The position numbers and the translations under genes were made by a program. The notes beneath the pieces were generated by a model, which was not told the origin of the DNA, ran no database searches, and saw nothing but the letters and a program-made list of their open reading frames with translations. From Candidatus Beckwithbacteria bacterium (GTDB lineage Bacteria > Patescibacteriota > Microgenomatia > UBA1400 > CG1-02-47-37), in contig JAZDKF010000047.1 of the NCBI GenBank assembly GCA_043803225.1, forward strand, positions 1 to 55,593: 55,593 nucleotides of DNA. The letters are read 5' to 3'. Shown here piece by piece: positions 7,670 to 50,661 of the stretch. Positions within the stretch are counted from its first letter, which is position 1. Each line of letters starts with the position of its first letter.

Positions 7670-10503
7670 TTTTTTAAATACTTGCCAGTATAAGAATGCA
7701 GATTCAGGCTGACTGTTTGAGGCGTGCCAAAGGCAACCAGTTGACCGCCTTGATCACCGCCTTCAGGACCCAGATCAATAATCCAATCAGCGTTTTTAAT
7801 TACATCTAAATTATGTTCAATGACAATAACGGTATTGCCTTGATTAACCAGTTGTTTTAAGACGGTTAAGAGTTTATTAAGATCTTCAAAGTGCAGGCCA
7901 GTAGTTGGCTCGTCTAATAAATAAAGCGTGTGGCCCCGATTTTTTATTGCCAGTTCTTTGGCAAGTTTAACCCGTTGAGCCTCACCGCCGGAAAGAGTCG
8001 GAGCCGGTTGACCTAAGGCAATATAACCTAAACCGACTTGCTGTAAAGTCAGGAGTTTAGGGTAAACCGGCGAGTGGTGAGGAAAAAAATCCAAGGCTTC
8101 ACTAACCGTTAAATCCAGGACTTGAGAAATGTTTTTATCCTGGTATTTAACTTCTAAAGTTTGCTGATTATATCTTTTACCCTGACAGACTTCGCAAGTG
8201 ATATAGACATCAGGCATAAACTGCATCTCGATTTTGACCTGGCCTTCGCCTTGGCAGGATTCACAGCGGCCGCCTTTAACATTAAAACTAAACCGGCCAG
8301 CGGTGTAACCTTTAACTTTAGCATCTTTGGTCAGGGTAAATAAATTGCGGATAAAATCAAAGGCTTTGGTGTAAGTAGCCGGATTGCTTCTGGGTGTCCG
8401 TCCGATCGGACTTTGATCAATTAAACTGACTTTGGTTAGGGTTTCCCAACCAGTTATAGCTTGATAATTATTTTTAATTTCTATATCCTGATAGTTTAAC
8501 TGAAACCGGATAGCATGATAAAGAGTGTCGTGAATTAAAGTCGATTTACCGGAACCAGATACACCGGTAATAACAATTAATTGATTTAAAGGGAAGTTAA
8601 CAGTAAGGTTTTTTAAATTATGCTGAGTACAACCGGTTAAAGTTAAGTTTAAATTTTCATCTCTTAAACAAGATGGTTGAACGGTAACTTTCTTTTTATG
8701 ATTTAGATACTGAGATGTTAAAGAATTTGTGGCCATTACCTGTTTTAGGGTGCCAGCAGCAACGATTTGGCCGCCTTGTTTACCGGCTAAAGGCCCAAAA
8801 TCAATTAAATAGTCGCTTTGAAGCATAATATCGCGATCGTGTTCAACAACAATAATCGTATTACCCAGATCCCGAAGACCTTTTAAGGTATTGATCAGAC
8901 GTTGATTATCCCGTTGGTGCAGACCAATAGAAGGTTCATCCAGGATATATAAGACTCCGGTTAAGCCAGTTCCGATCTGAGAGGCTAACCTGATTCTTTG
9001 AGCTTCCCCACCGGCTAAAGTAGAGGCTTCACGGGATAAACTCAGGTATTCCAGGCCAACAGAAAGCAGAAAGTTTAATCTTAGGGAGATTTCTTTTAAG
9101 ATTTGTTGGCCAATAGTTTTTTCTTTTTGGTTAAGCGGTGAGCAATCCAGAATTAACTGATTAATAAAAGCGTAAATATCTTTGATCGAAAGGCTGGTTA
9201 GTTCATAAATATTTAGTTTGTCGATAGTGACAGACAAGGCTTCTGATTTTAGCCTGGCTCCCAGACAACCAGGGCAGATTTCCTGGCTCATATAGCGATT
9301 AAATTCTTGGCGAATATAGTCAGAATCGGTAGTTTTATAACGACGCTCTAAGTTATTAACTAAACCTTCAAAGCCAGGAAAGCCGTATAAAACTTTTTTC
9401 TGGATTGACAAGGGAAGCTGATTCCAAGGAATAGACAGATCAATAACCTGACTTAATTTTTCCCGGAGCCAAGTACCGCTGGATAACTGAGAAGCATAGG
9501 GAATAATCGCCCCTTCAGCTAAAGTTAATCCAGGAGCAATCAGTTTATTTAAATCAATATTTTGAATTGAACCTAAACCAGTACAGGTTGGACAGGCGCC
9601 TTGAGGCGAATTAAAGGAAAATAAACGGGGTTCAAGTTCTTCCAGGCTTAAATTACAGCGTTCACAGGCGTAGTGTTCAGAATAGAGGGTATCTTGCAGG
9701 TTTTTGGGTTTTTCCGGAAAAGACAAAGAAGAATCGTTAATTTTGGCTAGGATTACCAGGCCTGCAGACAGTTTTAAACTGGTTTCAATACTTGATGATA
9801 ACCGGGTTTTTAATAGCTTTAATTCGCCCTTATCTTTAGCTTGAACTTTAGAAAACGAAAAACGTTCAATGACCGCATCAACGCTATGACGGTTGGTTTT
9901 AATTAAGGTAATATCCTCGTCAAGAGAATAGATTTGATTATCCAGCCGGAGACGCTGGATTGATTGAGCTTTTAAGTTTTTAAATAAATCTAAAAATTCG
10001 CCTTTTTTATCCCGAATAATTGGGCTTAGAAGCATAAACCGGCTAACTGCTTGATGTTTGACTGAATCAATGATTTGCTGAAAAATATGATCGGTAATCT
10101 GATCTAAGGATTGCTGACTAATCTCTTGGTGGCAATTGGGACAATGCGGCCGGCCGATTCTGGCATACAACAGCCTTAAGTAGTCGTAAATTTCTGTGAT
10201 TGTGCCGACCGTAGAGCGAGGATTATGAGAAGTAGTTTTTTGATCAATAGCAATCGCCGGAGATAAGCCTTCAATTGAATCAACATCAGGCTTATCCATT
10301 AGACCTAAAAACTGGCGGGCATAAGAACTTAAAGATTCAACATAACGACGCTGGCCTTCAGCATAGAGAGTATCAAATGCCAAAGAACTTTTACCAGAGC
10401 CAGAAAGTCCGGTAAAGACTACCAGTTGATTCTTAGGAAAGCTTAAATTAAGATTTTTCAAGTTATGCTGGCGAGCGCCTTTAATCACTATTTCTTGGTT
10501 CAT
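7654..10503 (-). CDS. uvrA: Excinuclease ABC subunit A
   Basis: Two Walker A motifs (GLSGSGKS, GVSGSGKS), zinc fingers, LSGGEAQR. Confidence 0.97.
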   Translation of the reverse strand: MNQEIVIKGARQHNLKNLNLSFPKNQLVVFTGLSGSGKSSLAFDTLYAEGQRRYVESLSSYARQFLGLMDKPDVDSIEGLSPAIAIDQKTTSHNPRSTVGTITEIYDYLRLLYARIGRPHCPNCHQEISQQSLDQITDHIFQQIIDSVKHQAVSRFMLLSPIIRDKKGEFLDLFKNLKAQSIQRLRLDNQIYSLDEDITLIKTNRHSVDAVIERFSFSKVQAKDKGELKLLKTRLSSSIETSLKLSAGLVILAKINDSSLSFPEKPKNLQDTLYSEHYACERCNLSLEELEPRLFSFNSPQGACPTCTGLGSIQNIDLNKLIAPGLTLAEGAIIPYASQLSSGTWLREKLSQVIDLSIPWNQLPLSIQKKVLYGFPGFEGLVNNLERRYKTTDSDYIRQEFNRYMSQEICPGCLGARLKSEALSVTIDKLNIYELTSLSIKDIYAFINQLILDCSPLNQKEKTIGQQILKEISLRLNFLLSVGLEYLSLSREASTLAGGEAQRIRLASQIGTGLTGVLYILDEPSIGLHQRDNQRLINTLKGLRDLGNTIIVVEHDRDIMLQSDYLIDFGPLAGKQGGQIVAAGTLKQVMATNSLTSQYLNHKKKVTVQPSCLRDENLNLTLTGCTQHNLKNLTVNFPLNQLIVITGVSGSGKSTLIHDTLYHAIRFQLNYQDIEIKNNYQAITGWETLTKVSLIDQSPIGRTPRSNPATYTKAFDFIRNLFTLTKDAKVKGYTAGRFSFNVKGGRCESCQGEGQVKIEMQFMPDVYITCEVCQGKRYNQQTLEVKYQDKNISQVLDLTVSEALDFFPHHSPVYPKLLTLQQVGLGYIALGQPAPTLSGGEAQRVKLAKELAIKNRGHTLYLLDEPTTGLHFEDLNKLLTVLKQLVNQGNTVIVIEHNLDVIKNADWIIDLGPEGGDQGGQLVAFGTPQTVSLNLHSYTGKYLKKCLKN

Positions 10504-10505
10504 AG

Positions 10506-12503
10506 TTATTTGGCTTTCATTTGGCTAATTTTATCGCGAATGACTATCGCCAGTTCAAAGTCCATTTGTTTAGCAGCTAAATTCATTCTTCTGGTTAAAC
10601 CATGAATTAAGCGAATTCTATCTGAAGGCGGATAATTTTGTGGTTTTAAGTTTGAAAGTTGTAAAACTAAAGTTAATGGAATGGTGGTTTTAGGGCGTTG
10701 GATTAATTCTTCTCGGATAGGTTTACTAATTGATTTCGGTATCAGATGATTTCTTTGATTGTATTTTTCCTGATATTTCCGGCGGCGACTAACTTCTTTA
10801 ATAGCATTTTTCATTGAATCAGTGATTTTATCTGCATACATTAAAACCAGACCATTAAGATGTCGAGCGGCCCGACCCATAGTTTGAATTAAGGCGTTAG
10901 TACTTCTTAAAAACCCTTCTTTATCAGCATCAAGAATGGCAACCAGACTGACTTCGGGTAAGTCCAAGCCTTCCCGAAGCAAGTTAATGCCAACGACAAC
11001 ATCAGCTTTACCCTGGCGCAGATCGGCTAAGATATCTGATCGATCCAAAGTGTTAACATCAGCATGGAGATATTGAACCTTAAGTTGCTGTTTTTTAGCT
11101 GTTTGATTAAGATAGTCAGTTAAAGCCTCAGCGGTTTTCTTAGTCAAAGTGGTAACCAGAGTACGTTGGTGCAAAACTTTTCGTTTTAAAATTTCTAAAG
11201 TTAAATCAGCAATTTGATTGGTTGAAGGCCGAATAATAATTTGCGGATCGGTTAAGCCGGTAGGCCGGACAAGCTGTTCAACAACTTTTGGCTGGGAGAG
11301 TGACAGTTCGTATTGATTGGGGGTGGCAGAGGTATAGATAACTAAAGGAGTCCGGCGTTGAAACTCGGTGTAAGTTAAAGGACGATTGTCTAAAGCACTG
11401 GGGAGACGGAAACCATAATCAATTAAAGTTTGTTTTCTCGACTGATCGCCGGCGTACATTCCCCTGATTTGAGGAAGAGTCATATGGGATTCATCAATCA
11501 CGGCGAGAAAATTAGGTGACTTAAATTTTTTAACATTGGCTTTAAAGTAGTCGATTAAAGTAAATGGCGGTTCCCCAGGCTTTCTTCCATCAAAATAACG
11601 GGAGTAGTTCTCAATGCCATTGGTATAACCTAAGGTGGCGATCATTTCCATATCGTTACTAACTTTTTGTTCTAAGCGATAGGCTTCAACTATTTGGCCC
11701 TTTGATTTAAAAATCTTAATTTGATTGATTAGGTCATGTTTGATTTCCTTAAGAGCTTGAGTTTGAGTAACCGGATTAGTCAGATAATGTTTAGCCGGAA
11801 ATATAACGATTCGTTTAACCGGATTACCTTTGATTTTAATTAATTCCAGAGTGTTATCTAAAAAATTCAAGTTAATAATGTCATCTTTTTCAGCCGGCCA
11901 GATGGAAACGGTTTCGCCTTTAACGCTGAAACAGCCGCGTTTCAACTCAAAGTCATTGCGGCGGTACTGGAGATCAGTTAAGCGGCTTAAAATTGCCTGA
12001 CGGTCAATTATTTGACCGCTAATCAGTTCTAAAATGGATTGACCGTATTCAACCGGTGAACCTAAGTTATAAATACAGGATACGGAAGCCACCACAATCA
12101 CATCAGGGCGGGTTAAAAGCTGAGTCGTGGCGGAAAGCCTGAGTTTGTCTATTTCATCATTAATATTGGTTTCTTTTTCGATATAGGTATCGGTTGCTGG
12201 CAGATAGGCTTCAGGCTGATAGTAATCATAATAAGAAACAAAGTAGGAAACAGCGTTATGAGGGAAAAAGTCGCGAAACTCCTGATAGAGCTGAGCGGCT
12301 AAGGTTTTGTTATGAGAAATAACCAGAGTCGGCAGTTGAGTCTGGCTGATCACATTGGCGACAGTAAAAGTTTTGCCGCTGCCAGTAACCCCAAGCAAAG
12401 TTTGATGCGGGGATCTGGCTTGAACTCCGGAAACCAAGTGTTTAATCGCCTGAGGTTGATCTCCGGTAGGAGAAAAACTGCTTTTCAGCCTGAATTTTGG
12501 CAT
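10506..12503 (-). CDS. uvrB: Excinuclease ABC subunit B
   Basis: GVTGSGKT, YYDYYQPEAY, DESH, NLLREGLD, C-terminal UVR coil. Confidence 0.97.
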   Translation of the reverse strand: MPKFRLKSSFSPTGDQPQAIKHLVSGVQARSPHQTLLGVTGSGKTFTVANVISQTQLPTLVISHNKTLAAQLYQEFRDFFPHNAVSYFVSYYDYYQPEAYLPATDTYIEKETNINDEIDKLRLSATTQLLTRPDVIVVASVSCIYNLGSPVEYGQSILELISGQIIDRQAILSRLTDLQYRRNDFELKRGCFSVKGETVSIWPAEKDDIINLNFLDNTLELIKIKGNPVKRIVIFPAKHYLTNPVTQTQALKEIKHDLINQIKIFKSKGQIVEAYRLEQKVSNDMEMIATLGYTNGIENYSRYFDGRKPGEPPFTLIDYFKANVKKFKSPNFLAVIDESHMTLPQIRGMYAGDQSRKQTLIDYGFRLPSALDNRPLTYTEFQRRTPLVIYTSATPNQYELSLSQPKVVEQLVRPTGLTDPQIIIRPSTNQIADLTLEILKRKVLHQRTLVTTLTKKTAEALTDYLNQTAKKQQLKVQYLHADVNTLDRSDILADLRQGKADVVVGINLLREGLDLPEVSLVAILDADKEGFLRSTNALIQTMGRAARHLNGLVLMYADKITDSMKNAIKEVSRRRKYQEKYNQRNHLIPKSISKPIREELIQRPKTTIPLTLVLQLSNLKPQNYPPSDRIRLIHGLTRRMNLAAKQMDFELAIVIRDKISQMKAK

Positions 12504-13147: not shown

Positions 13148-13214
13148 CTCAGCGGATTAGAGCGAATGTCTTCGGAACATTAGGCCGTAGGTTCAAGTCC
13201 TACCTGGCGCACCA
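13138..13214 (+). tRNA. tRNA-Arg(UCG) with encoded CCA
   Basis: GCGCCAG/CTGGCGC-A-CCA; anticodon arm AATGT-CTTCGGA-ACATT. Confidence 0.93.
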
Positions 13215-13290
13215 GGGCCGTTAGCTCAGTTGGTAGAGCGGATGCCTCTTAAGCATCATGTCACAGGTTCGAGTCCTGTACGGCTCACCA
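13215..13290 (+). tRNA. tRNA-Lys(CUU) with encoded CCA
   Basis: GGGCCGT/ACGGCTC-A-CCA; anticodon arm GATGC-CTCTTAA-GCATC. Confidence 0.95.
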
Positions 13291-23287: not shown

Positions 23288-23310
23288 CCTACAAGGAGAC
23301 TCCTTGTAGG
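23288..23310. repeat. REP-1 copy upstream of RAYT1
   Basis: CCTACAAGGAGACTCCTTGTAGG, perfect 11-1-11 palindrome. Confidence 0.9.
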
Positions 23311-23327
23311 TGTATAATTAACAAATA

Positions 23328-23966
23328 ATGCCTTCGAAAAACACGTTAAAACAATATATAGAGGATAGCTATTATCATATATATAATCGTGGAGTTAATA
23401 AGGAGCGGATTTTTTTAGATGATCAAGATTATAAAACCTTTCTTAGATACCTTAAAATGTATTTATCGTTATCTGACCTACAAGGAGACTCCTTGAAGGT
23501 AAAAGTAGCGCCCTCAAGACAGTTAAAAAATTACACTGATCAAATTAAGTTAATTGCTTATTGTTTGCTTCCTAATCACTTTCATTTATTAATCTGGCAG
23601 AATGAATTTGATAAAATTAATTTTTTTATGCGATCGTTAGCGACCAAATACGCAAGATATTTTAATCGTAAATATCATCGAGTTGGACCTGTTTTCCAAA
23701 GCGTTTATAAAGCTGTTCTTGTAGAAAGTGAGGATCAATTACTTTATTTAACCAAGTATATTCATCGCAATCCAATTGAATTATTACCTACGAGGAGTCT
23801 CCTTGTAGGTTACAAATACTCAAGCTATGGTAATTATTTGAATTTATTTAATCAAGTTTGGGTTAAACCATTAGATTTTATAAACAAATCTTATAAAACA
23901 TTTGTTGAAGAAACAGATGAACGTGACTTATTAACAATAAAGTCGGTGTTAATTGAAGAAATTTAG
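23328..23966 (+). CDS. REP-associated tyrosine transposase (RAYT, Y1/IS200-like)
   Basis: YYHIYNRG, AYCLLPNHFHLL (HUH), YIHRNP (catalytic Tyr), YSSY. Confidence 0.92.
   Translation: MPSKNTLKQYIEDSYYHIYNRGVNKERIFLDDQDYKTFLRYLKMYLSLSDLQGDSLKVKVAPSRQLKNYTDQIKLIAYCLLPNHFHLLIWQNEFDKINFFMRSLATKYARYFNRKYHRVGPVFQSVYKAVLVESEDQLLYLTKYIHRNPIELLPTRSLLVGYKYSSYGNYLNLFNQVWVKPLDFINKSYKTFVEETDERDLLTIKSVLIEEI
23477..23499. repeat. REP-1 copy inside RAYT1 CDS
   Basis: CCTACAAGGAGACTCCTTGAAGG. Confidence 0.85.
23787..23809. repeat. REP-1 copy inside RAYT1 CDS (reverse orientation)
   Basis: CCTACGAGGAGTCTCCTTGTAGG. Confidence 0.85.
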
Positions 23967-23989
23967 CCTGCAAGGAGACTCCTTGTAGG
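23967..23989. repeat. REP-1 copy abutting the RAYT1 stop codon
   Basis: CCTGCAAGGAGACTCCTTGTAGG. Confidence 0.85.
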
Positions 23990-42494: not shown

Positions 42495-42504
42495 TGAAGA
42501 AATG

Positions 42505-42577
42505 TGAGCCGTACAGGACTTGAACCTGTGACCAATTGCTTAAAAGGCAACTGCTCTACCAACTGAGCTAACGGCCC
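42505..42577 (-). tRNA. tRNA-Lys(UUU)
   Basis: GGGCCGT/ACGGCTC acceptor, anticodon loop CTTTTAA. Confidence 0.95.
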
Positions 42578-42584
42578 TGTGAGA

Positions 42585-44598: not shown

Positions 44599-47500
44599 TT
44601 ATACCTTAAAAGGCTTCAAAATGCTAGTAATTTCTTTTTTTATTACGTTAAAATTAATCGGATAAGGAAGGGTGATTGTTCTAGTTTCGCCGCCGTTAAT
44701 TAATTTTAAAGTGATTATGTCATTGCCGGGATTGGATTGGAAAAGCTGATTTAAACTGACTAAAATATCTTTAGGAGTCGATTGTTTGATTTCCAAAGTA
44801 ATTTCTTGAGACTTTTCGGTTGTCTTTTCATTAATAGATTCCAGTTTAGACGAAGGGTTAACCGCCGAATCTACAATCAGAGTTAAACGGTCTTTAATAT
44901 CAACTTTACCAGTGACTAAAATCGGTTGATCATTAATCCAGGAAGATTTAGTTGAAGCATAAAGCTTGGGGAAAATTACAAGTTCAATCGACCCGGTATC
45001 ATCTTCCAGATTAGCAAAGGCCATCTCCTGATTAGATTTTTTAGTAACAATTATCTTTAAGCCTTTAATAATGCCGCCAATTGTAACAGTCTTGTGAACG
45101 TGAAGCTTTGGATCCAGTTCACCGATTTGATGAGAAACTAAAGATTTTAATTGTTCCAAAGATTTAGCTAAGGGATGTTCGGTTAAGTAAAAACCCAGCA
45201 GTTGTTTTTCAAAGCTTAATAAATCAATTTTGCTAAATTCTTCAGCTTCGGCCAGCTTATCAATGGCTTCAGTTTTCTGAGTGTCTGAACCGGAAAACAT
45301 GGAGACCTGCGGGCTGTTTTGAATTTTTTGCGCTTCAGCGGCTTTTTGCCTAATGTCTTCAAGAGATAATAATAATTGGCTTCTTTTGGCAAAAGCATCA
45401 AAAGCACCAACCTGAATTAAACTTTCTAAAACTTTTTTATTCACCTTTTGTTGGTCAATCCGTTGGCAAAAATCAGTAAAAGAAGAAAAAAACTTTTTAG
45501 TCCTGGCTTTAATAATCGCCTCAATCGCGGCTTCACCGACATTTTTTATCGCTGACAAACCAAAAACAATTGCCTGATCATTTAAGGAAGTTTTATCTTT
45601 AATAATAGTAAAGCCAATACAGGAACGGTTAATATCCGGTGGATAAACTTTAATCTTCATTCGTTTAGCTTCGGCAATTGCCAGGGGAATTTTGTCCTTG
45701 TCGTTTGATTCAGCTGATAGAAGAGCAGCCATAAATTCAACTGGATAATGAGCTTTCATATAGGCAGTTTGGTAAGAGATCATGGCATAAGCCGTGGCGT
45801 GCGCTTTGTTAAAACCATAACCAACAAATTTTTCGATATAACCCCAAACCCGTTCAGCCACTTCCCGGTTATACCCTTTTTCTCGGGATTGTTGAATAAA
45901 CTTGGTTCTTTCTTTGGTCATTAAAACCCGCTTTTTTTTACCGATTGCCCGGCGTAAAATATCCGCCTCACCCAGAGTGTAACCGGCCATAACATTAGCA
46001 ATTTGCAGAGCTTGTTCCTGGTACACCGCAATCCCGTAAGTTTCAGCCAAGACCGGTTTTAAGTCCTCATGAGGATATTTAATTGAGGATGGATTTTTTT
46101 TACCAGAAATAAAATCGTCGATTAAGTCCATTGGCCCTGGCCGATAAAGAGCCACCATAGCGGTAATATCAGAAAATCGATTAGGAAGAAGTTTTTTGGC
46201 AACTGAACGCATACCGCCTGATTCGAGCTGGAATATCCCAATGGTATGACCTAAACTTAATAATTTATAGACAGCCGGATCGTCAAGAGGAATTTCTGAC
46301 ATATCGACTTTAGGTTTGCCTTGTTCAGTGACAAAATTTATGGCATTCTGAAGCGTAGTTAGATTTCGCAGTCCCAGAAAGTCGATTTTCAGCAAACCAA
46401 TCGCATCAGCATCAATATTACAATCAAGCGAATACATGTCGTATTGGGTCATGATCCGTTCATTTTTTGATTCAAGCTGAAGCGGAGTATACTCAGTCAA
46501 GGGCTTGTCACCGATAACGACACCGGCGGCGTGGGTTGAAGCGTGCCTGGCAGTTCCTTCAACTTTTTTAGCTAAATTAATCAGTTCTTTAAATTCAGGC
46601 TGACTATAGTATTCCTGAAGTTCCTGGCTGTTAATCAAGGCTTCTTCAATACTAAAGCCATAAGGAATCAATTTTGAAATCTTGTCAGGTTCAGAGTAAG
46701 GCATGCCTAAAACCCGGCCAATATCCCGAATGGCACCTTTAGCTTCCATACTGCCGAAAGTAATAATTTGGGCAACCCGGTCTTTGCCATATTTTTCGGC
46801 CACATAGTGAATGACTTCATCCCGGCGGTCATCAGCAAAATCCAGATCAATATCTGGCGGGCTGGGACGTTCAGGATTCATAAACCGTTCAAAAGGGATG
46901 TTGTGCTCGATCGGATCGATGGTGGTAATTCTTAAAGAAAATGCCACCAAAGAACCGGCAACACTACCCCGGCCGGGACCAACCCGAATCTTATGTTGTT
47001 TAGCCCAGTTAACAAAGTCCTGAACAATTAAAAAATAGGTGGCAAAACCTTTGTCACAAATAATTTTAAGTTCATACTTCAGCCTTTTTTCCAGTTCAGG
47101 AGTAATTTTGGCAAAACGTTTTTTCAAGCCTTGAATAGCTAAAAATTCCAGATAGTTTTCAGATTTTTTAAAACCTTTAGGCAAAGTAAAATTCGGGAGA
47201 ATCCATTTCCCGGTCGGAATAGTGACATTGCATTTATCGGCAATTTTAACTGAATTATTTAAAGCATCAGGCAAGTCAGGAAAAAGTTGTTTCATTTCTT
47301 CAGCGGACTTTAAGTAATAATCTGGCGAGTTAATCATTGAGAGTCGATTAGCATCAGAAAGAACGGTCTTGGTTTGAATTGCCAATAAAGCATCCTGAGC
47401 TTTGGCATCAGCTTTAGTCACATAGTGCAGATCATTAGTAGCGACAAGCGGAATTCCCAGCTGACGGGAAAACTCAATTAGTTTTTGATTGACTTTTTTC

Positions 47501-48048
47501 AATTCAGGGATACCCTGGTGAATCTGAAGTTCCAAGTAAAAGTCGTCTTGAAACAGTTTTTGAAAATATTGACAGTACTTTATGGCTTCTTTGTCATTGT
47601 TGTCCAGGATCATTTGAGGAATTAAACCCTGAATACAGGAAGAGGTGGCGATTAAACCTTCTGAATATTTTTCTAAAGCTTTAAAATCAAATCGGGGACG
47701 ATAGTAGTAGCCTTCCAAATTAGCTAAGGTAGTTAAGCGCATTAGATTTTGGTAACCAATAAAGTTTTTAGCCAGGAACAGCTGATGATAGGTTTGTTTC
47801 TGAGCACCAGGAGATTTGTCATGGCAGTCAAGAGTTGTCAGATAACCTTCGATACCGATAATCGGTTTGATACCGGCTTTTTTAGCCGCATTATGAAATT
47901 TAACGGCGCCATACATCACCCCGTGATCGGTAATAGCGATGGCTTTCATCTTCAACTCAATTACCCGTTTAATCAGCTCGTCAAGTTTACATAAACCATC
48001 CAAAAGTGAGTATTGAGTATGAACATGAAGATGAACAAAATCAGTCAT
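44599..48048 (-). CDS. dnaE: DNA polymerase III alpha subunit
   Basis: PHP HLHVH, GRGS, PDIDLDF, KIDFLGL, YGFNKAH, OB-fold. Confidence 0.98.
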   Translation of the reverse strand: MTDFVHLHVHTQYSLLDGLCKLDELIKRVIELKMKAIAITDHGVMYGAVKFHNAAKKAGIKPIIGIEGYLTTLDCHDKSPGAQKQTYHQLFLAKNFIGYQNLMRLTTLANLEGYYYRPRFDFKALEKYSEGLIATSSCIQGLIPQMILDNNDKEAIKYCQYFQKLFQDDFYLELQIHQGIPELKKVNQKLIEFSRQLGIPLVATNDLHYVTKADAKAQDALLAIQTKTVLSDANRLSMINSPDYYLKSAEEMKQLFPDLPDALNNSVKIADKCNVTIPTGKWILPNFTLPKGFKKSENYLEFLAIQGLKKRFAKITPELEKRLKYELKIICDKGFATYFLIVQDFVNWAKQHKIRVGPGRGSVAGSLVAFSLRITTIDPIEHNIPFERFMNPERPSPPDIDLDFADDRRDEVIHYVAEKYGKDRVAQIITFGSMEAKGAIRDIGRVLGMPYSEPDKISKLIPYGFSIEEALINSQELQEYYSQPEFKELINLAKKVEGTARHASTHAAGVVIGDKPLTEYTPLQLESKNERIMTQYDMYSLDCNIDADAIGLLKIDFLGLRNLTTLQNAINFVTEQGKPKVDMSEIPLDDPAVYKLLSLGHTIGIFQLESGGMRSVAKKLLPNRFSDITAMVALYRPGPMDLIDDFISGKKNPSSIKYPHEDLKPVLAETYGIAVYQEQALQIANVMAGYTLGEADILRRAIGKKKRVLMTKERTKFIQQSREKGYNREVAERVWGYIEKFVGYGFNKAHATAYAMISYQTAYMKAHYPVEFMAALLSAESNDKDKIPLAIAEAKRMKIKVYPPDINRSCIGFTIIKDKTSLNDQAIVFGLSAIKNVGEAAIEAIIKARTKKFFSSFTDFCQRIDQQKVNKKVLESLIQVGAFDAFAKRSQLLLSLEDIRQKAAEAQKIQNSPQVSMFSGSDTQKTEAIDKLAEAEEFSKIDLLSFEKQLLGFYLTEHPLAKSLEQLKSLVSHQIGELDPKLHVHKTVTIGGIIKGLKIIVTKKSNQEMAFANLEDDTGSIELVIFPKLYASTKSSWINDQPILVTGKVDIKDRLTLIVDSAVNPSSKLESINEKTTEKSQEITLEIKQSTPKDILVSLNQLFQSNPGNDIITLKLINGGETRTITLPYPINFNVIKKEITSILKPFKV

Positions 48049-48090
48049 TACCTCATCTTATTTTTTTTACCTTTATTTTTCAACTCTAAA

Positions 48091-48113
48091 CCTACAGGGT
48101 CGGACCTTGTAGG
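48091..48113. repeat. REP-2 copy upstream of RAYT2
   Basis: CCTACAGGGTCGGACCTTGTAGG. Confidence 0.9.
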
Positions 48114-48128
48114 TATATAATAAGATTT

Positions 48129-48779
48129 ATGCCGGCGAAGAACGTAGTTAAAGAATTTTATCCTGACGCATATTATCATATTTATAATCGAGGCGTAGCT
48201 AAACAGACTATTTTTATTGATGAACAAGATTATAAATCCTTTCTTTCTTATCTTAAAATTTATCTTTCCTCAATCGATAAATCCATAAAAGTCTCCCCTT
48301 CCAGAAAATTAAAAAATTATTTTCAGAAACTACGCTTGTTGGCTTATTGTCTTATGCCAAACCATTTTCATTTGTTTATTTGGCAAGAGAATAAAAATTC
48401 AATTAGTGAATTTATGCAATCGATTTTAACCAAGTATTCCATGTATTTTAATAAAAAATACAAACGAATCGGCCCTGTTTTCCAAGGTAAATATAAAGCA
48501 GTAAGAATCGTGTCTGAAAATCAGTTTACTTATTTATCAAAGTATCTTCATCGCAACCCTTTTCAAATTCTGCCTACAGGGTCGGACCTTGAAGGTTACA
48601 AATACTCAAGTTATCAAAATTATCTGAGAAAATTTAGCCAATCTTGGTTAGATATAAATGAGATTTTAAATTATTTTTCTAAAACTAAAACGTTTAATTC
48701 TTATAAAAACTTTGTTGAAGAAATTGATGAGACTGATTTACTAAGAATAAAAAACTTGGTCCTTGATTTAGATTTCTAA
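48129..48779 (+). CDS. REP-associated tyrosine transposase (RAYT) 2
   Basis: YYHIYNRG, AYCLMPNHFHLF, YLHRNP, YSSY. Confidence 0.92.
   Translation: MPAKNVVKEFYPDAYYHIYNRGVAKQTIFIDEQDYKSFLSYLKIYLSSIDKSIKVSPSRKLKNYFQKLRLLAYCLMPNHFHLFIWQENKNSISEFMQSILTKYSMYFNKKYKRIGPVFQGKYKAVRIVSENQFTYLSKYLHRNPFQILPTGSDLEGYKYSSYQNYLRKFSQSWLDINEILNYFSKTKTFNSYKNFVEEIDETDLLRIKNLVLDLDF
48573..48595. repeat. REP-2 copy inside RAYT2 CDS
   Basis: CCTACAGGGTCGGACCTTGAAGG. Confidence 0.85.
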
Positions 48780-49342
48780 CCTACAGGGTCGGACCCTGTA
48801 GGTTGGTGTAGGTTGTAAAGCAGAAAATTATAAACATCTTTTAAAACTTTTAATTCCTGCTGTTTTTGGTTTAGCCAGGCCTCTTTACCTCCACGTTTAT
48901 CAGGACTAAAAACTAATGCCTGCAATCCTTCCCTAGCAGCAGTAACTTGCCCTTGTGAAGCAAAGCAGCCGACTTCAACCCAAGGCTCGATATTGTCTTC
49001 ATTGACAATCGCATGAGCTATTATAAATGACCAAGGAAAATTGTTTCTTTCTAATCTCAAGGTAATTGTTCTGGCAACATCATCTTCAGATATGGGCGAG
49101 CAGGCAAAATAAAATCTGGTTATTTCTTCTGGCTGAAAGGTAAATTCAGGTTGAAAAACCCGTTTAAGATTTTCCGGCATTCTGTTCCAATCTATCAGAT
49201 CTTCGTTTGTACTTAATTCCACTAGCCCATCTGTTATTTTACCGAGTCCAGAAAAAACTTGCTTGACTTCTTGGACAATAGACTCCCTACCAGCGCTTAT
49301 CTCTTGATCCGACAATTGTTTTTCTACGAAAACAGACCCCAT
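48776..49342 (-). CDS. Hypothetical protein
   Basis: 188 aa ORF with AAGGA SD; last codons encoded by REP-2. Confidence 0.7.
   Translation of the reverse strand: MGSVFVEKQLSDQEISAGRESIVQEVKQVFSGLGKITDGLVELSTNEDLIDWNRMPENLKRVFQPEFTFQPEEITRFYFACSPISEDDVARTITLRLERNNFPWSFIIAHAIVNEDNIEPWVEVGCFASQGQVTAAREGLQALVFSPDKRGGKEAWLNQKQQELKVLKDVYNFLLYNLHQPTGSDPVG
48780..48802. repeat. REP-2 copy abutting the RAYT2 stop codon
   Basis: CCTACAGGGTCGGACCCTGTAGG, perfect 11-1-11 palindrome. Confidence 0.9.
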
Positions 49343-49371
49343 AGTTCTGTCCTTTGGATAGTGATTACAGC

Positions 49372-50661
49372 TTAGCTCTTGAGGTTAAGTTTGTCAAGAA
49401 GGATTTTTTGGGTTTGTTTCGGATCAGCCTGACCATGGGTAAGTTTCATTACCTGGCCAACTAAAAAACCTAAAACTGAAGTTTTGCCTGCCTTGTATTT
49501 AGCCACAACTTCAGAATTTTCAGTGATAACCTGATCAAGAAGATTCAGATCTATCTTAGCCGTAAGCCCTGCTCTTAATTGAGTATTTAGAGGTTTAGAA
49601 ATATCGATTTTTTTATTAACAATCAAGTTAGCTAGTTTGATTGGTTCAAGGTTTTTTAAATTAGCTTTAAAATATTGAAGTTTTTTTGGATCAGCAACGA
49701 TAATTTTTGCAGTATTAGCTGACAAATGATATTGATCAATAAGAGCTTTGATTCGACTGGCCGGTAACTGTGGCAGTTTAGATCTTAAAGCTTTAATATA
49801 TTCTGGGGTTAGAATAATCGGCGGAATATCCGGCTCAGGAAAGTAACGATAATCTTCGGCGGTTTCTTTAATTCTTTGAGTAAATGTTTGTTTTAATTTT
49901 GGATTATAGCCACGAGTTTCCTGCACTGGTTTCTTCTTGGATTTAAGAAATTCAGATTGACGGCTAATTTCATAGTTAATCGCCTGTTCGACAAACCGGA
50001 AAGAATTTAGGTTTTTAACTTCAACTTTGTAATCAGCCAGTTGGTTCGGATCCGGACTTAAGGAAATATTCGCTTCCAAGCGCATCGAGCCCTTTTCCAT
50101 ATCACAGTTAGAAACATTTAAGCTTCTGACGATCGCCTGAAGTTTTTTTAAAAACTCTTTAGCATCAGCAGCGTGATGCAAGTCCGGCTCGGTGACAATT
50201 TCCACCAAAGGCACGCCGGAACGATTAAAATCAATCAGCGTCACAGGCTGGTTATTAACTTTTTTATGAATCAGTTTGGCAGTGTCTTCTTCCAAATGAA
50301 CCCGGTTGATGCGCACAATTTTACCGGAATCAAGTTCAAGCTTACCGGAAAAACAAAATGGATCGTCCAGCTGGGAAATCTGGTAACCTTTGGGCAGATC
50401 CGGATAAAAGTAATGCTTGCGATCAAAAGTAGTTTCCAAGTTAATTTGACAGTCTAAAGCCAAACCAACCATAATCGCCCAGTCAATCGCTTTTTGGTTC
50501 GGCACCGGCAATGCTCCGGGCAGGCCCAAACACACTGGACAAGTATGGGTATTAGGTTTAACCTGAAAATGAACAGCCGGACAAGTACAAAACATCTTGG
50601 ATAATGTTTTCAATTCTACGTGAATTTCCAAACCGATAGTCGGATATAGTTTAGGGGTCAT
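49372..50661 (-). CDS. gatB: Asp/Glu-tRNA amidotransferase subunit B
   Basis: IGLEIHVEL, YFYPDLPKGYQISQ, HLEEDTAK, DYRYFPEPD. Confidence 0.96.
   Translation of the reverse strand: MTPKLYPTIGLEIHVELKTLSKMFCTCPAVHFQVKPNTHTCPVCLGLPGALPVPNQKAIDWAIMVGLALDCQINLETTFDRKHYFYPDLPKGYQISQLDDPFCFSGKLELDSGKIVRINRVHLEEDTAKLIHKKVNNQPVTLIDFNRSGVPLVEIVTEPDLHHAADAKEFLKKLQAIVRSLNVSNCDMEKGSMRLEANISLSPDPNQLADYKVEVKNLNSFRFVEQAINYEISRQSEFLKSKKKPVQETRGYNPKLKQTFTQRIKETAEDYRYFPEPDIPPIILTPEYIKALRSKLPQLPASRIKALIDQYHLSANTAKIIVADPKKLQYFKANLKNLEPIKLANLIVNKKIDISKPLNTQLRAGLTAKIDLNLLDQVITENSEVVAKYKAGKTSVLGFLVGQVMKLTHGQADPKQTQKILLDKLNLKS

Follow-up and report, generated by a model that had tools for sequence, protein, structure and literature searches.

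Gene-specific palindromes at the promoter, stop codon and coding sequence of two RAYT-like genes on a Beckwithbacteria contig

Among the described systems closest to the genes treated here are REPtrons, in which the gene of a REP-associated tyrosine transposase (RAYT, or TnpAREP) is flanked by its cognate repetitive extragenic palindromes (REPs), as in E. coli YafM/TnpAREP (PDB 4ER8) and the Pseudomonas RAYTs. According to the survey by Quentin et al. (2018, PMC6006769), each tnpAREP has its own REP family, even when several occur in one genome, and in-frame REPs inside tnpAREP genes are known and are interpreted as insertions into peripheral loops. In-frame intragenic REPs have been described in other genes as well (Di Nocera et al. 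2013, PMC3733652), groups of TnpAREP co-evolve with their REPs (Corneloup et al. 2021, PMC8266576), and the C-terminal extension of E. coli TnpAREP touches the GTAG bases of its hairpin (PMC3479197). Hairpin recognition by RAYTs and the accompanying co-evolution are still under study in a handful of proteobacterial pairs (PMC8266576), and none of the papers listed in our literature search combined RAYT terms with Patescibacteria. Here we analyze two RAYT-like genes, RAYT1 and RAYT2, in a 55.6-kb stretch of a Candidatus Beckwithbacteria contig (JAZDKF010000047.1; 55,593 nt, hereafter the window). We hold with moderate confidence that they are vertically inherited REPtron-like modules, in which internal palindrome copies are passengers, local copying keeps the copies alike and each enzyme has a private hairpin.

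The RAYT2 module, built around a domesticated-looking transposase gene, measures 712 bp from hairpin to hairpin. Its upstream palindrome, CCTACAGGGTCGGACCTTGTAGG (48091..48113, no strand), contains one G-T mismatch and covers the -35/spacer region of the promoter; the -10 hexamer TATAAT, read directly (48116-48121, plus strand), follows 2 nt past the palindrome and lies 7 nt ahead of the ATG. The coding sequence (CDS; 48129..48779, plus strand) encodes a class-2 Y1 HUH protein of 216 aa, as judged from the open reading frame (ORF), motifs and fold match, with the HUH motif H79-F-H81 at 48363-48371 (plus strand) and the catalytic Tyr139 of YLHRNP at 48543-48545 (plus strand). Between the Y motif and YKYSS lies an in-frame internal palindrome, CCTACAGGGTCGGACCTTGAAGG (48573..48595, plus strand), which encodes PTGSDLEG (residues 149-156). 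The terminal palindrome, CCTACAGGGTCGGACCCTGTAGG (48780..48802, no strand), is perfect and begins at the first base after the TAA stop codon. The upstream, internal and terminal copies differ from CCTACAGGGTCGGACCCTGTAGG at 1, 2 and 0 bases, respectively, and their consensus is CCTACAGGGTCGGACC(C/T)TG(T/A)AGG. When folded as single-stranded DNA (ssDNA) and compared with shuffled sequences, the upstream hairpin reaches -8.0 kcal/mol (z = -4.8) and the terminal one -12.7 kcal/mol (z = -6.0). The internal copy folds weakly (-4.0 kcal/mol, z = -1.2; 21 of 200 shuffles equally stable), and because this is near the shuffle level, it is best described as a sequence copy with a weakened stem.

RAYT1 (23328..23966, plus strand; 212 aa) repeats this layout with a palindrome of its own. 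The upstream copy, CCTACAAGGAGACTCCTTGTAGG (23288..23310, no strand), is followed by TG and then by TATAAT (23313-18), 9 nt ahead of the ATG, and the terminal copy (23967..23989, no strand) begins at the first base after the TAG stop codon. Two copies lie inside the CDS and fold well as DNA (z = -4.2 and -4.9): copy 1 (23477..23499, plus strand), in the loop before HUH, encodes (D)LQGDSLK(V), and copy 2 (23787..23809, plus strand), in the linker from the Y motif to the SS motif, encodes PTRSLLVG and is flipped, with a central T instead of A. The two proteins are 56% identical over their full length, and the palindrome in the HRNP-YKYSSY interval is common to both genes, read as PTGSDLEG in RAYT2 and as PTRSLLVG in RAYT1. 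The RAYT1 loop with the extra copy (DLQGDSLKV) is 5 aa longer than its RAYT2 counterpart. A preliminary description of this DNA had reported homology along the whole length of the two genes, a palindrome private to each gene that recurs at its promoter, its stop codon and within its CDS, and a RAYT2 loop shortened in keeping with its missing first internal copy; all of this holds. The loose pattern CCTACA-N11-TGTAGG, with up to 2 mismatches, occurs seven times in the window, always at RAYT1 or RAYT2, versus 1.0 in shuffled sequence, and for the full RAYT1 or RAYT2 pattern the shuffle expectation is 0, so that a chance origin of the palindromes is rejected. A pattern search across the whole window found neither palindrome elsewhere.

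Both proteins are RAYT-like class-2 Y1 HUH proteins at the level of fold and motif, which bears out the identity first proposed for them. They pass the Pfam Y1_Tnp cut-off of 23 bits with 31.8 and 39.4 bits. In an alignment of 28 homologs, H79 and H81 (NHFH), Tyr139, Asn143 and the Y-S-S-Y motif are invariant and P144 is nearly so. The Y motif of the clade, Y[IL]HRNP, conforms to Y-x-x-x-N-P, which marks class 2 of the TnpAY1 family, IS200 having Y-x-x-x-Q (PMC6006769), and the clade motifs NHFH, WQ, YIHRNP and SS tail combine traits of subclasses 2.1, 2.4 and 2.6 of that classification. An AlphaFold2 model of RAYT2 (pLDDT 74, pTM 0.73) has as its top Foldseek match in the PDB 4er8_A, the E. 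coli TnpAREP with its REP hairpin (E = 8.6e-5, probability 1.00, TM (target) 0.65), with IS608 and ISDra2 TnpA as the next fold matches. Residues 144-154 of the model, the region of the palindrome-encoded peptide, have a pLDDT of <50, so that disorder is predicted for the loop. No Y1 transposase was found when the PDB was searched by sequence, whether with one protein or with a profile of 28 sequences. A similarity of the C-terminal tail (residues 160-214) to the C-terminal domain of the proteasome activator PA28 (PA28_C, Pfam E = 0.0047, below cut-off; PDB 7yqd, E = 0.077) is probably a spurious helical likeness and was set aside.

Is this organization peculiar to the window? A protein search at E <= 1e-5 returned >7600 matches, and all those with a named source come from Patescibacteria, many of them from Beckwithbacteria. 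Homologous loci (labeled L plus a number) were retrieved from species-representative genomes (80 loci), from metagenomes (80 loci) and by exact protein look-up (8 loci); 159 nonredundant Patescibacteria homologs with both flanks present form the statistical set. Nearly every retrieved locus has its own GC-rich palindrome 35-80 bp ahead of the start codon and at the stop codon. The upstream and downstream flanks have an exact 14-mer in common in 96 of the 159 genes, compared to 112 of 25122 pairs of different genes (0.45%), and a flank 14-mer is found again in the gene's own CDS in 80 of 159 (50%), compared to 157 of the 25122 cross pairs (0.6%). As a control for relatedness, the flank core of each gene was set against that of its nearest relative: the CDS was matched more closely by the gene's own core in 59 genes and less closely in 17 (p = 1.4e-6, sign test).

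The internal copies are confined to two sites, at ~aa 50-72 before HUH or at ~aa 149-172 between the Y and SS motifs; among about 100 copies, those with assignable landmarks fall before HUH (36), from Y to SS (40) and after SS (5), and none between HUH and Y. Both sites recur among homologs that are 35-70% identical. The peptide between HRNP and YKYSS is palindrome-like in the best 120 matches, with paired residues such as PT..VG, PS..DG, PA..AG and TS..EV and tandem LEG expansions, and relatives without hairpins have a linker of 5-12 aa of the type xVAGLVxDLxx. The copy in loop 1, before HUH, is present in some close homologs and absent from others, with a 5-aa indel in the 28-homolog alignment, and among the 111 genes whose two flanks carry matching hairpins, 51 contain no internal copy at all.

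Syntenic loci show how the copies change. The order dnaE (divergent)-RAYT-gatB (convergent) is kept in the window and at L081, L082, L083 and L084, with DnaE 68-80% identical. These five loci have four palindromes, beginning CCTACAGGGTCGG, CCGTCAGGGACGG, CCTGCGAGGTCGG and ACTTCAGGTTCGG: CCTACAGGGTCGGACCCTGTAGG at RAYT2 in the window, CCGTCAGGGACGGACCCTGACGG at L081 and L082, CCTGCGAGGTCGGACCTCGCAGG at L083 and ACTTCAGGTTCGGAACCTGAAGT at L084. At each locus, one variant fills all three places (upstream, CDS and stop codon), and the differences between loci are paired changes on a common skeleton. The same concerted pattern, at four positions, is seen in L163 and L168, which share gyrB|RAYT|holB synteny. 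Syntenic orthologs are 63-70% identical. The palindrome copies of one module evolve in concert; this part of the preliminary description is upheld by the 159 homologs and by the five syntenic loci. About one-third of the copies are flipped; after a choice of orientation, copies within a locus differ at ~5% per stem base and ~1% per loop base. That unpaired loop bases are also identical indicates copying, beyond selection for pairing alone. L031, a more distant locus, has gatB next to dnaE, with RAYT on the far side of dnaE; the insertion of the module between gatB and dnaE therefore dates to an ancestor of the lineage that includes the window. With RAYT2 next to dnaE (window positions 44599-50661) and the L163 and L168 modules next to gyrB and holB, replication genes are recurrent neighbors.

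Where a palindrome is also read as protein, its bases deviate in a coding-compatible way. Internal copies in loop 1 read TGAAGG because the TGTAGG arm would place an in-frame TAG stop there. Internal copies in loop 2, the linker from Y to SS, encode Leu (CTT) at a place where CCT (Pro) stands in the perfect terminal copy and in most orthologous flank copies; the RAYT2 upstream copy likewise has CTT, as its internal copy does. CTT preserves a D-L pair that is conserved also in the hairpin-less relatives (xVAGLVxDLxx). Protein-level selection and DNA homogenization therefore act on the same bases. In L163, TGAAGG and a compensating CCTTCA occur in all four copies, flanks included; the flanks hold the coding-compatible form, which suggests that sequence may pass from an internal copy to the flanks too.

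The promoter abuts the upstream hairpin. The -10 assignment rests on direct reading and on family-wide spacing in 166 homologous genes, of which 53 have a -10-like hexamer ending 6-9 nt before the start codon (control flat) and only 10 have a Shine-Dalgarno-like motif; RAYT2 has no Shine-Dalgarno sequence. Given this short distance and the near absence of Shine-Dalgarno motifs, transcripts of the clade are probably leaderless. A sigma-70 scan called a promoter at neither RAYT1 nor RAYT2, because the -35 position falls within the upstream palindrome. A terminator role of the hairpin at the stop codon was considered and rejected, as T-run support is absent. An accompanying survey of neighboring genes found no fixed strand relation (upstream, 70 same and 57 opposite; downstream, 49 same and 79 opposite). 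Since the upstream hairpin covers the -35/spacer region, autoregulation of the gene would be probable. The left-end hairpin of IS200 also influences transcription into its element.

Taken as REPtron-like, each module would consist of a cognate hairpin, a leaderless promoter with its gene, and a second cognate hairpin. The clade enzymes would be class-2 Y1 HUH endonucleases/transferases of ssDNA, with putative binding and cleavage of the hairpin. The internal palindromes would be in-frame copies of hairpin DNA that settled in the only two places tolerated by the protein, the loop before HUH and the linker that leads from the catalytic-Tyr helix to the YxYSS motif. Local copying would keep the copies of a module ~95% identical, loop bases included, probably by enzymatic cleavage and rejoining among hairpins on one exposed ssDNA stretch or by short-tract gene conversion. 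At a few bases this homogenization would be opposed by protein-level selection, and the outcome would be a private enzyme/hairpin pair for each paralog, with the hairpin on the -35/spacer probably serving autoregulation.

Several findings weigh against this reading. Both proteins miss the NCBIfam RAYT equivalog NF047646 (REP_Tyr_transpos), reaching 41.0 and 42.8 bits where the cut-off is 80. Only 9 palindrome copies lie in 942 kb of DNA flanking the homologous loci (~1 per 100 kb outside the gene) and 0 elsewhere in the window, so that the dispersed repetitiveness that defines REPs is not seen in these scanned flanks and the window, a density compatible with ~10 copies/Mb per genome. In these data, copying and strong selection to keep every copy recognizable by the enzyme would leave the same homogeneity. 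Finally, internal positions conserved over such deep divergence could be functional sites rather than tolerated passengers.

The name "REP" applies to these palindromes only loosely, as they hardly recur beyond the gene. The 9 stray copies are mostly intergenic, and two lie within long ORFs of unrelated genes at a distance of several kb from RAYT (L031, ~16223, 482 codons; L032, ~15489, 923 codons). A search of viral contigs for the protein and for the palindrome gave one distant protein match (28%) and no exact palindrome; the family is essentially absent there. Copies within the same genome are old paralogs and orthologs hold their position; hence, the RAYT1 and RAYT2 modules are not active insertion sequences (IS), nor are they a classical high-copy REP system.

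Compared to the proteobacterial REPtrons, the clade has the same Y1 HUH domain and Y-x-x-x-N-P motif, with 4er8_A as top fold match, and its gene likewise stands between GC-rich palindromes specific to it. Low copy number and syntenic inheritance are common to both, as is the presence of several diverged RAYTs per genome with their own palindromes (for RAYTs, PMC6006769). In contrast to REPtrons, the RAYT2 clade stays below the NCBIfam RAYT cut-off (41-43 versus 80 bits) and its palindromes form no dispersed high-copy family. They are near-perfect, bulge-free 23-mers, and the promoter, probably leaderless, abuts the hairpin. The GT[AG]G tetranucleotide may be a further difference: in the window palindromes GTAG is present but paired within the 3' stem arm (TGTAGG) rather than unpaired at the 5' foot of the hairpin, and it is not conserved in the clade, orthologs having TGACGG, TCGCAGG or TGAAGT there.

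Subclass 2.4 of TnpAY1 (Bertels group 4) resembles the clade in having in-frame cognate copies in the transposase gene besides the flanking ones, but it differs in their positions: in the clade the copies precede HUH or follow the Y motif, and the interval from HUH to Y is free of them. Its Y motif is YIxNNP, compared to YIHRNP plus the SS tail motif in the RAYT2 clade, and its hosts are Cyanobacteria and Bacteroidetes rather than Patescibacteria. In-situ concerted change at orthologous loci is not met with in the available sections describing this subclass (PMC6006769). Rickettsia palindromic elements and intragenic REPs (PMC3733652) are alike in that functional proteins accommodate short in-frame palindromic repeats within their surface loops, and the clade's strays in the long ORFs of L031 and L032 match this; they are unlike in that the main host gene of the clade is the presumed acting enzyme itself and its sites recur family-wide. 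The matched transposase/palindrome pairs of the preliminary description are accordingly real but not new, since the rule of one RAYT to one REP family, like the presence of in-frame REPs within tnpAREP, is already published (PMC6006769). The clade departs from what is published in its host phylum, YIHRNP with the SS tail, the two insertion sites, the near-confinement of the hairpin to its gene, the probably leaderless promoter and the concerted change at orthologous loci.

Do the internal copies themselves do something? One alternative has them as functional cis sites: the enzyme would bind hairpins of its own gene, as ssDNA or in the transcript, and so limit its own expression or rearrange the gene, and selection for recognition would hold internal copies matched to the flanks. 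Two fixed internal positions among homologs that are only 35-70% identical, internal copies ~95% identical to flank copies, the good folding of both RAYT1 internal copies and the hint from L163 (TGAAGG/CCTTCA in all four copies) of flow from the inside to the flanks are what such a function would leave. However, nearly half of the genes with matched flank hairpins (51/111) do without an internal copy, the RAYT2 internal copy folds no better than shuffled sequence does, orientation varies, and only some of a set of close homologs have the loop-1 copy. On balance we regard a cis-site function as unlikely.

HUH initiators with a nick site in their own gene are well known, such as the phiX174 gene A origin and the pT181 RepC origin, and in the pT181 family the Rep/origin pairs are plasmid-specific. 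These initiators are alike in that the cognate HUH site is embedded in the coding sequence of the enzyme. They differ in being replication origins of demonstrated function, whereas the clade shows no sign of rolling-circle replication and half of its genes have no internal site.

A second alternative, put forward in the preliminary description, makes the palindrome-encoded peptide a DNA-recognition surface, so that replacement of the palindrome would shift specificity and each enzyme would encode its own orthogonality. By construction the peptide changes with the palindrome, and the linker follows the catalytic-Tyr helix and opens the C-terminal extension, the part of E. coli TnpAREP that is in contact with GTAG (PMC3479197). 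This is nevertheless very improbable, and the claim of a self-encoded specificity determinant is not supported. The 51 of 111 homologs without an internal copy hold cognate flank hairpins all the same; the two sites use different reading frames of the same DNA, which gives unrelated peptides (LQGDSLK and PTRSLLVG); flipping, found in about one-third of the copies, alters the middle residues; and the loop has a pLDDT of <50 in the AlphaFold2 model. Moreover, internal copies depart from the palindrome to retain Leu and the ancestral D-L, indicating that the protein constrains the DNA and not the reverse. It is similarly doubtful, to a high degree, that the in-gene hairpins are working parts on which the enzyme acts, with a change of target coupled to a change of the linker near the active site; if that were true, each paralog would re-key itself and stay orthogonal, a specificity switch in a family of >7600 proteins.

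The reading of each module as an autonomous IS200-like insertion sequence (~710 bp), with the flanking palindromes as left and right ends and the internal ones as alternative ends, has little chance of being right: the layout of hairpin, Y1 transposase gene and hairpin over 712 bp, the two or three copies within 20 kb in several genomes and the gatB-dnaE adjacency without RAYT in L031, by which the module was once inserted, would fit it, but the Y motif is Y-x-x-x-N-P of class 2 and not the Y-x-x-x-Q of IS200 (PMC6006769), the protein has 216 aa with a C-terminal extension, near-identical copies were not found (the intragenomic pair is 56% identical), position is kept across species, and NCBIfam transpos_IS200 is missed with 16.3 bits against a cut-off of 55. 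With IS200/IS608 the clade shares fold and catalytic chemistry and a ~700-bp unit in which hairpins bound a single Y1 gene on both sides. Unlike in IS200 (subclass 1.1), whose protein is a core of only ~150 aa with Y-x-x-x-Q, the RAYT2 product has YLHRNP and a C-terminal extension, and the clade has neither high-identity multicopy elements nor tnpB and keeps its position across species.

Some further observations concern the surroundings of RAYT2. After the gene, the terminal palindrome's 3' arm, together with its flank, is part of a tandem 10-bp duplication, TGTAGGTTGG / TGTAGGTTGT (48797..48816, plus strand), as read from the sequence. The CDSs of several homologs contain tandem LEG, LEGLEG and LEGLEGLEG expansions (P0014, P0025, P0031 and P0042), which involve the same arm. 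Slippage may have produced both, as may repeated rounds of cleavage and rejoining at the foot of the hairpin. A convergent ORF of 188 aa (48776-49342, minus strand) lies between RAYT2 and gatB and has no Pfam match; it ends within the RAYT2 terminal palindrome, and its final 8 residues, PTGSDPVG, are the minus-strand reading of this palindrome. L081 and L082 are without this ORF, and there the called gatB begins 3 nt past the RAYT stop codon, so that the 3' end of gatB overlaps the terminal palindrome. The longest inverted repeat of the window (13213-13288 / 42504-42579; 76 nt, 89% complementary) is a pair of opposite-strand tRNA-Lys genes, CTT and TTT.

Other observations come from the wider family. 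In distant homologs (L009, L019, L021, L023, L028, L043, L046, L048, L049 and L073), the flank consists of two inverted palindromes that form one long, REPIN-like hairpin, and many of these doublet-bearing loci come from metagenome-assembled genomes labeled Saccharibacteria; L028 and L043 have such a doublet inserted in loop 2 as well, which brings this loop to 21-22 aa. L078 carries a frameshifted RAYT homolog (9968-10701), a pseudogene or an assembly error, with four palindromes whose 9-bp stems are identical and whose loop triplets are all different (CTC, TTC, TCC and GAA). It was the candidate for a truncated homolog ending at an internal hairpin after deletion between hairpins, and it was rejected as such, being a full-length frameshifted gene with all four palindromes.

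The clade is a compact natural data set for RAYT-hairpin recognition: thousands of homologs have 2-4 copies of the cognate site within 700 bp each, so that every metagenomic contig gives a matched enzyme/site pair. The stepwise, compensated changes of these sites at orthologous loci could reveal rules of recognition and aid the design of orthogonal ssDNA-processing enzymes. The same 23 bases show DNA homogenization and protein selection at work together. Overall, the clade extends RAYT-like systems to ultra-small genomes nearly devoid of dispersed repeats, and one may ask why the module is retained there.

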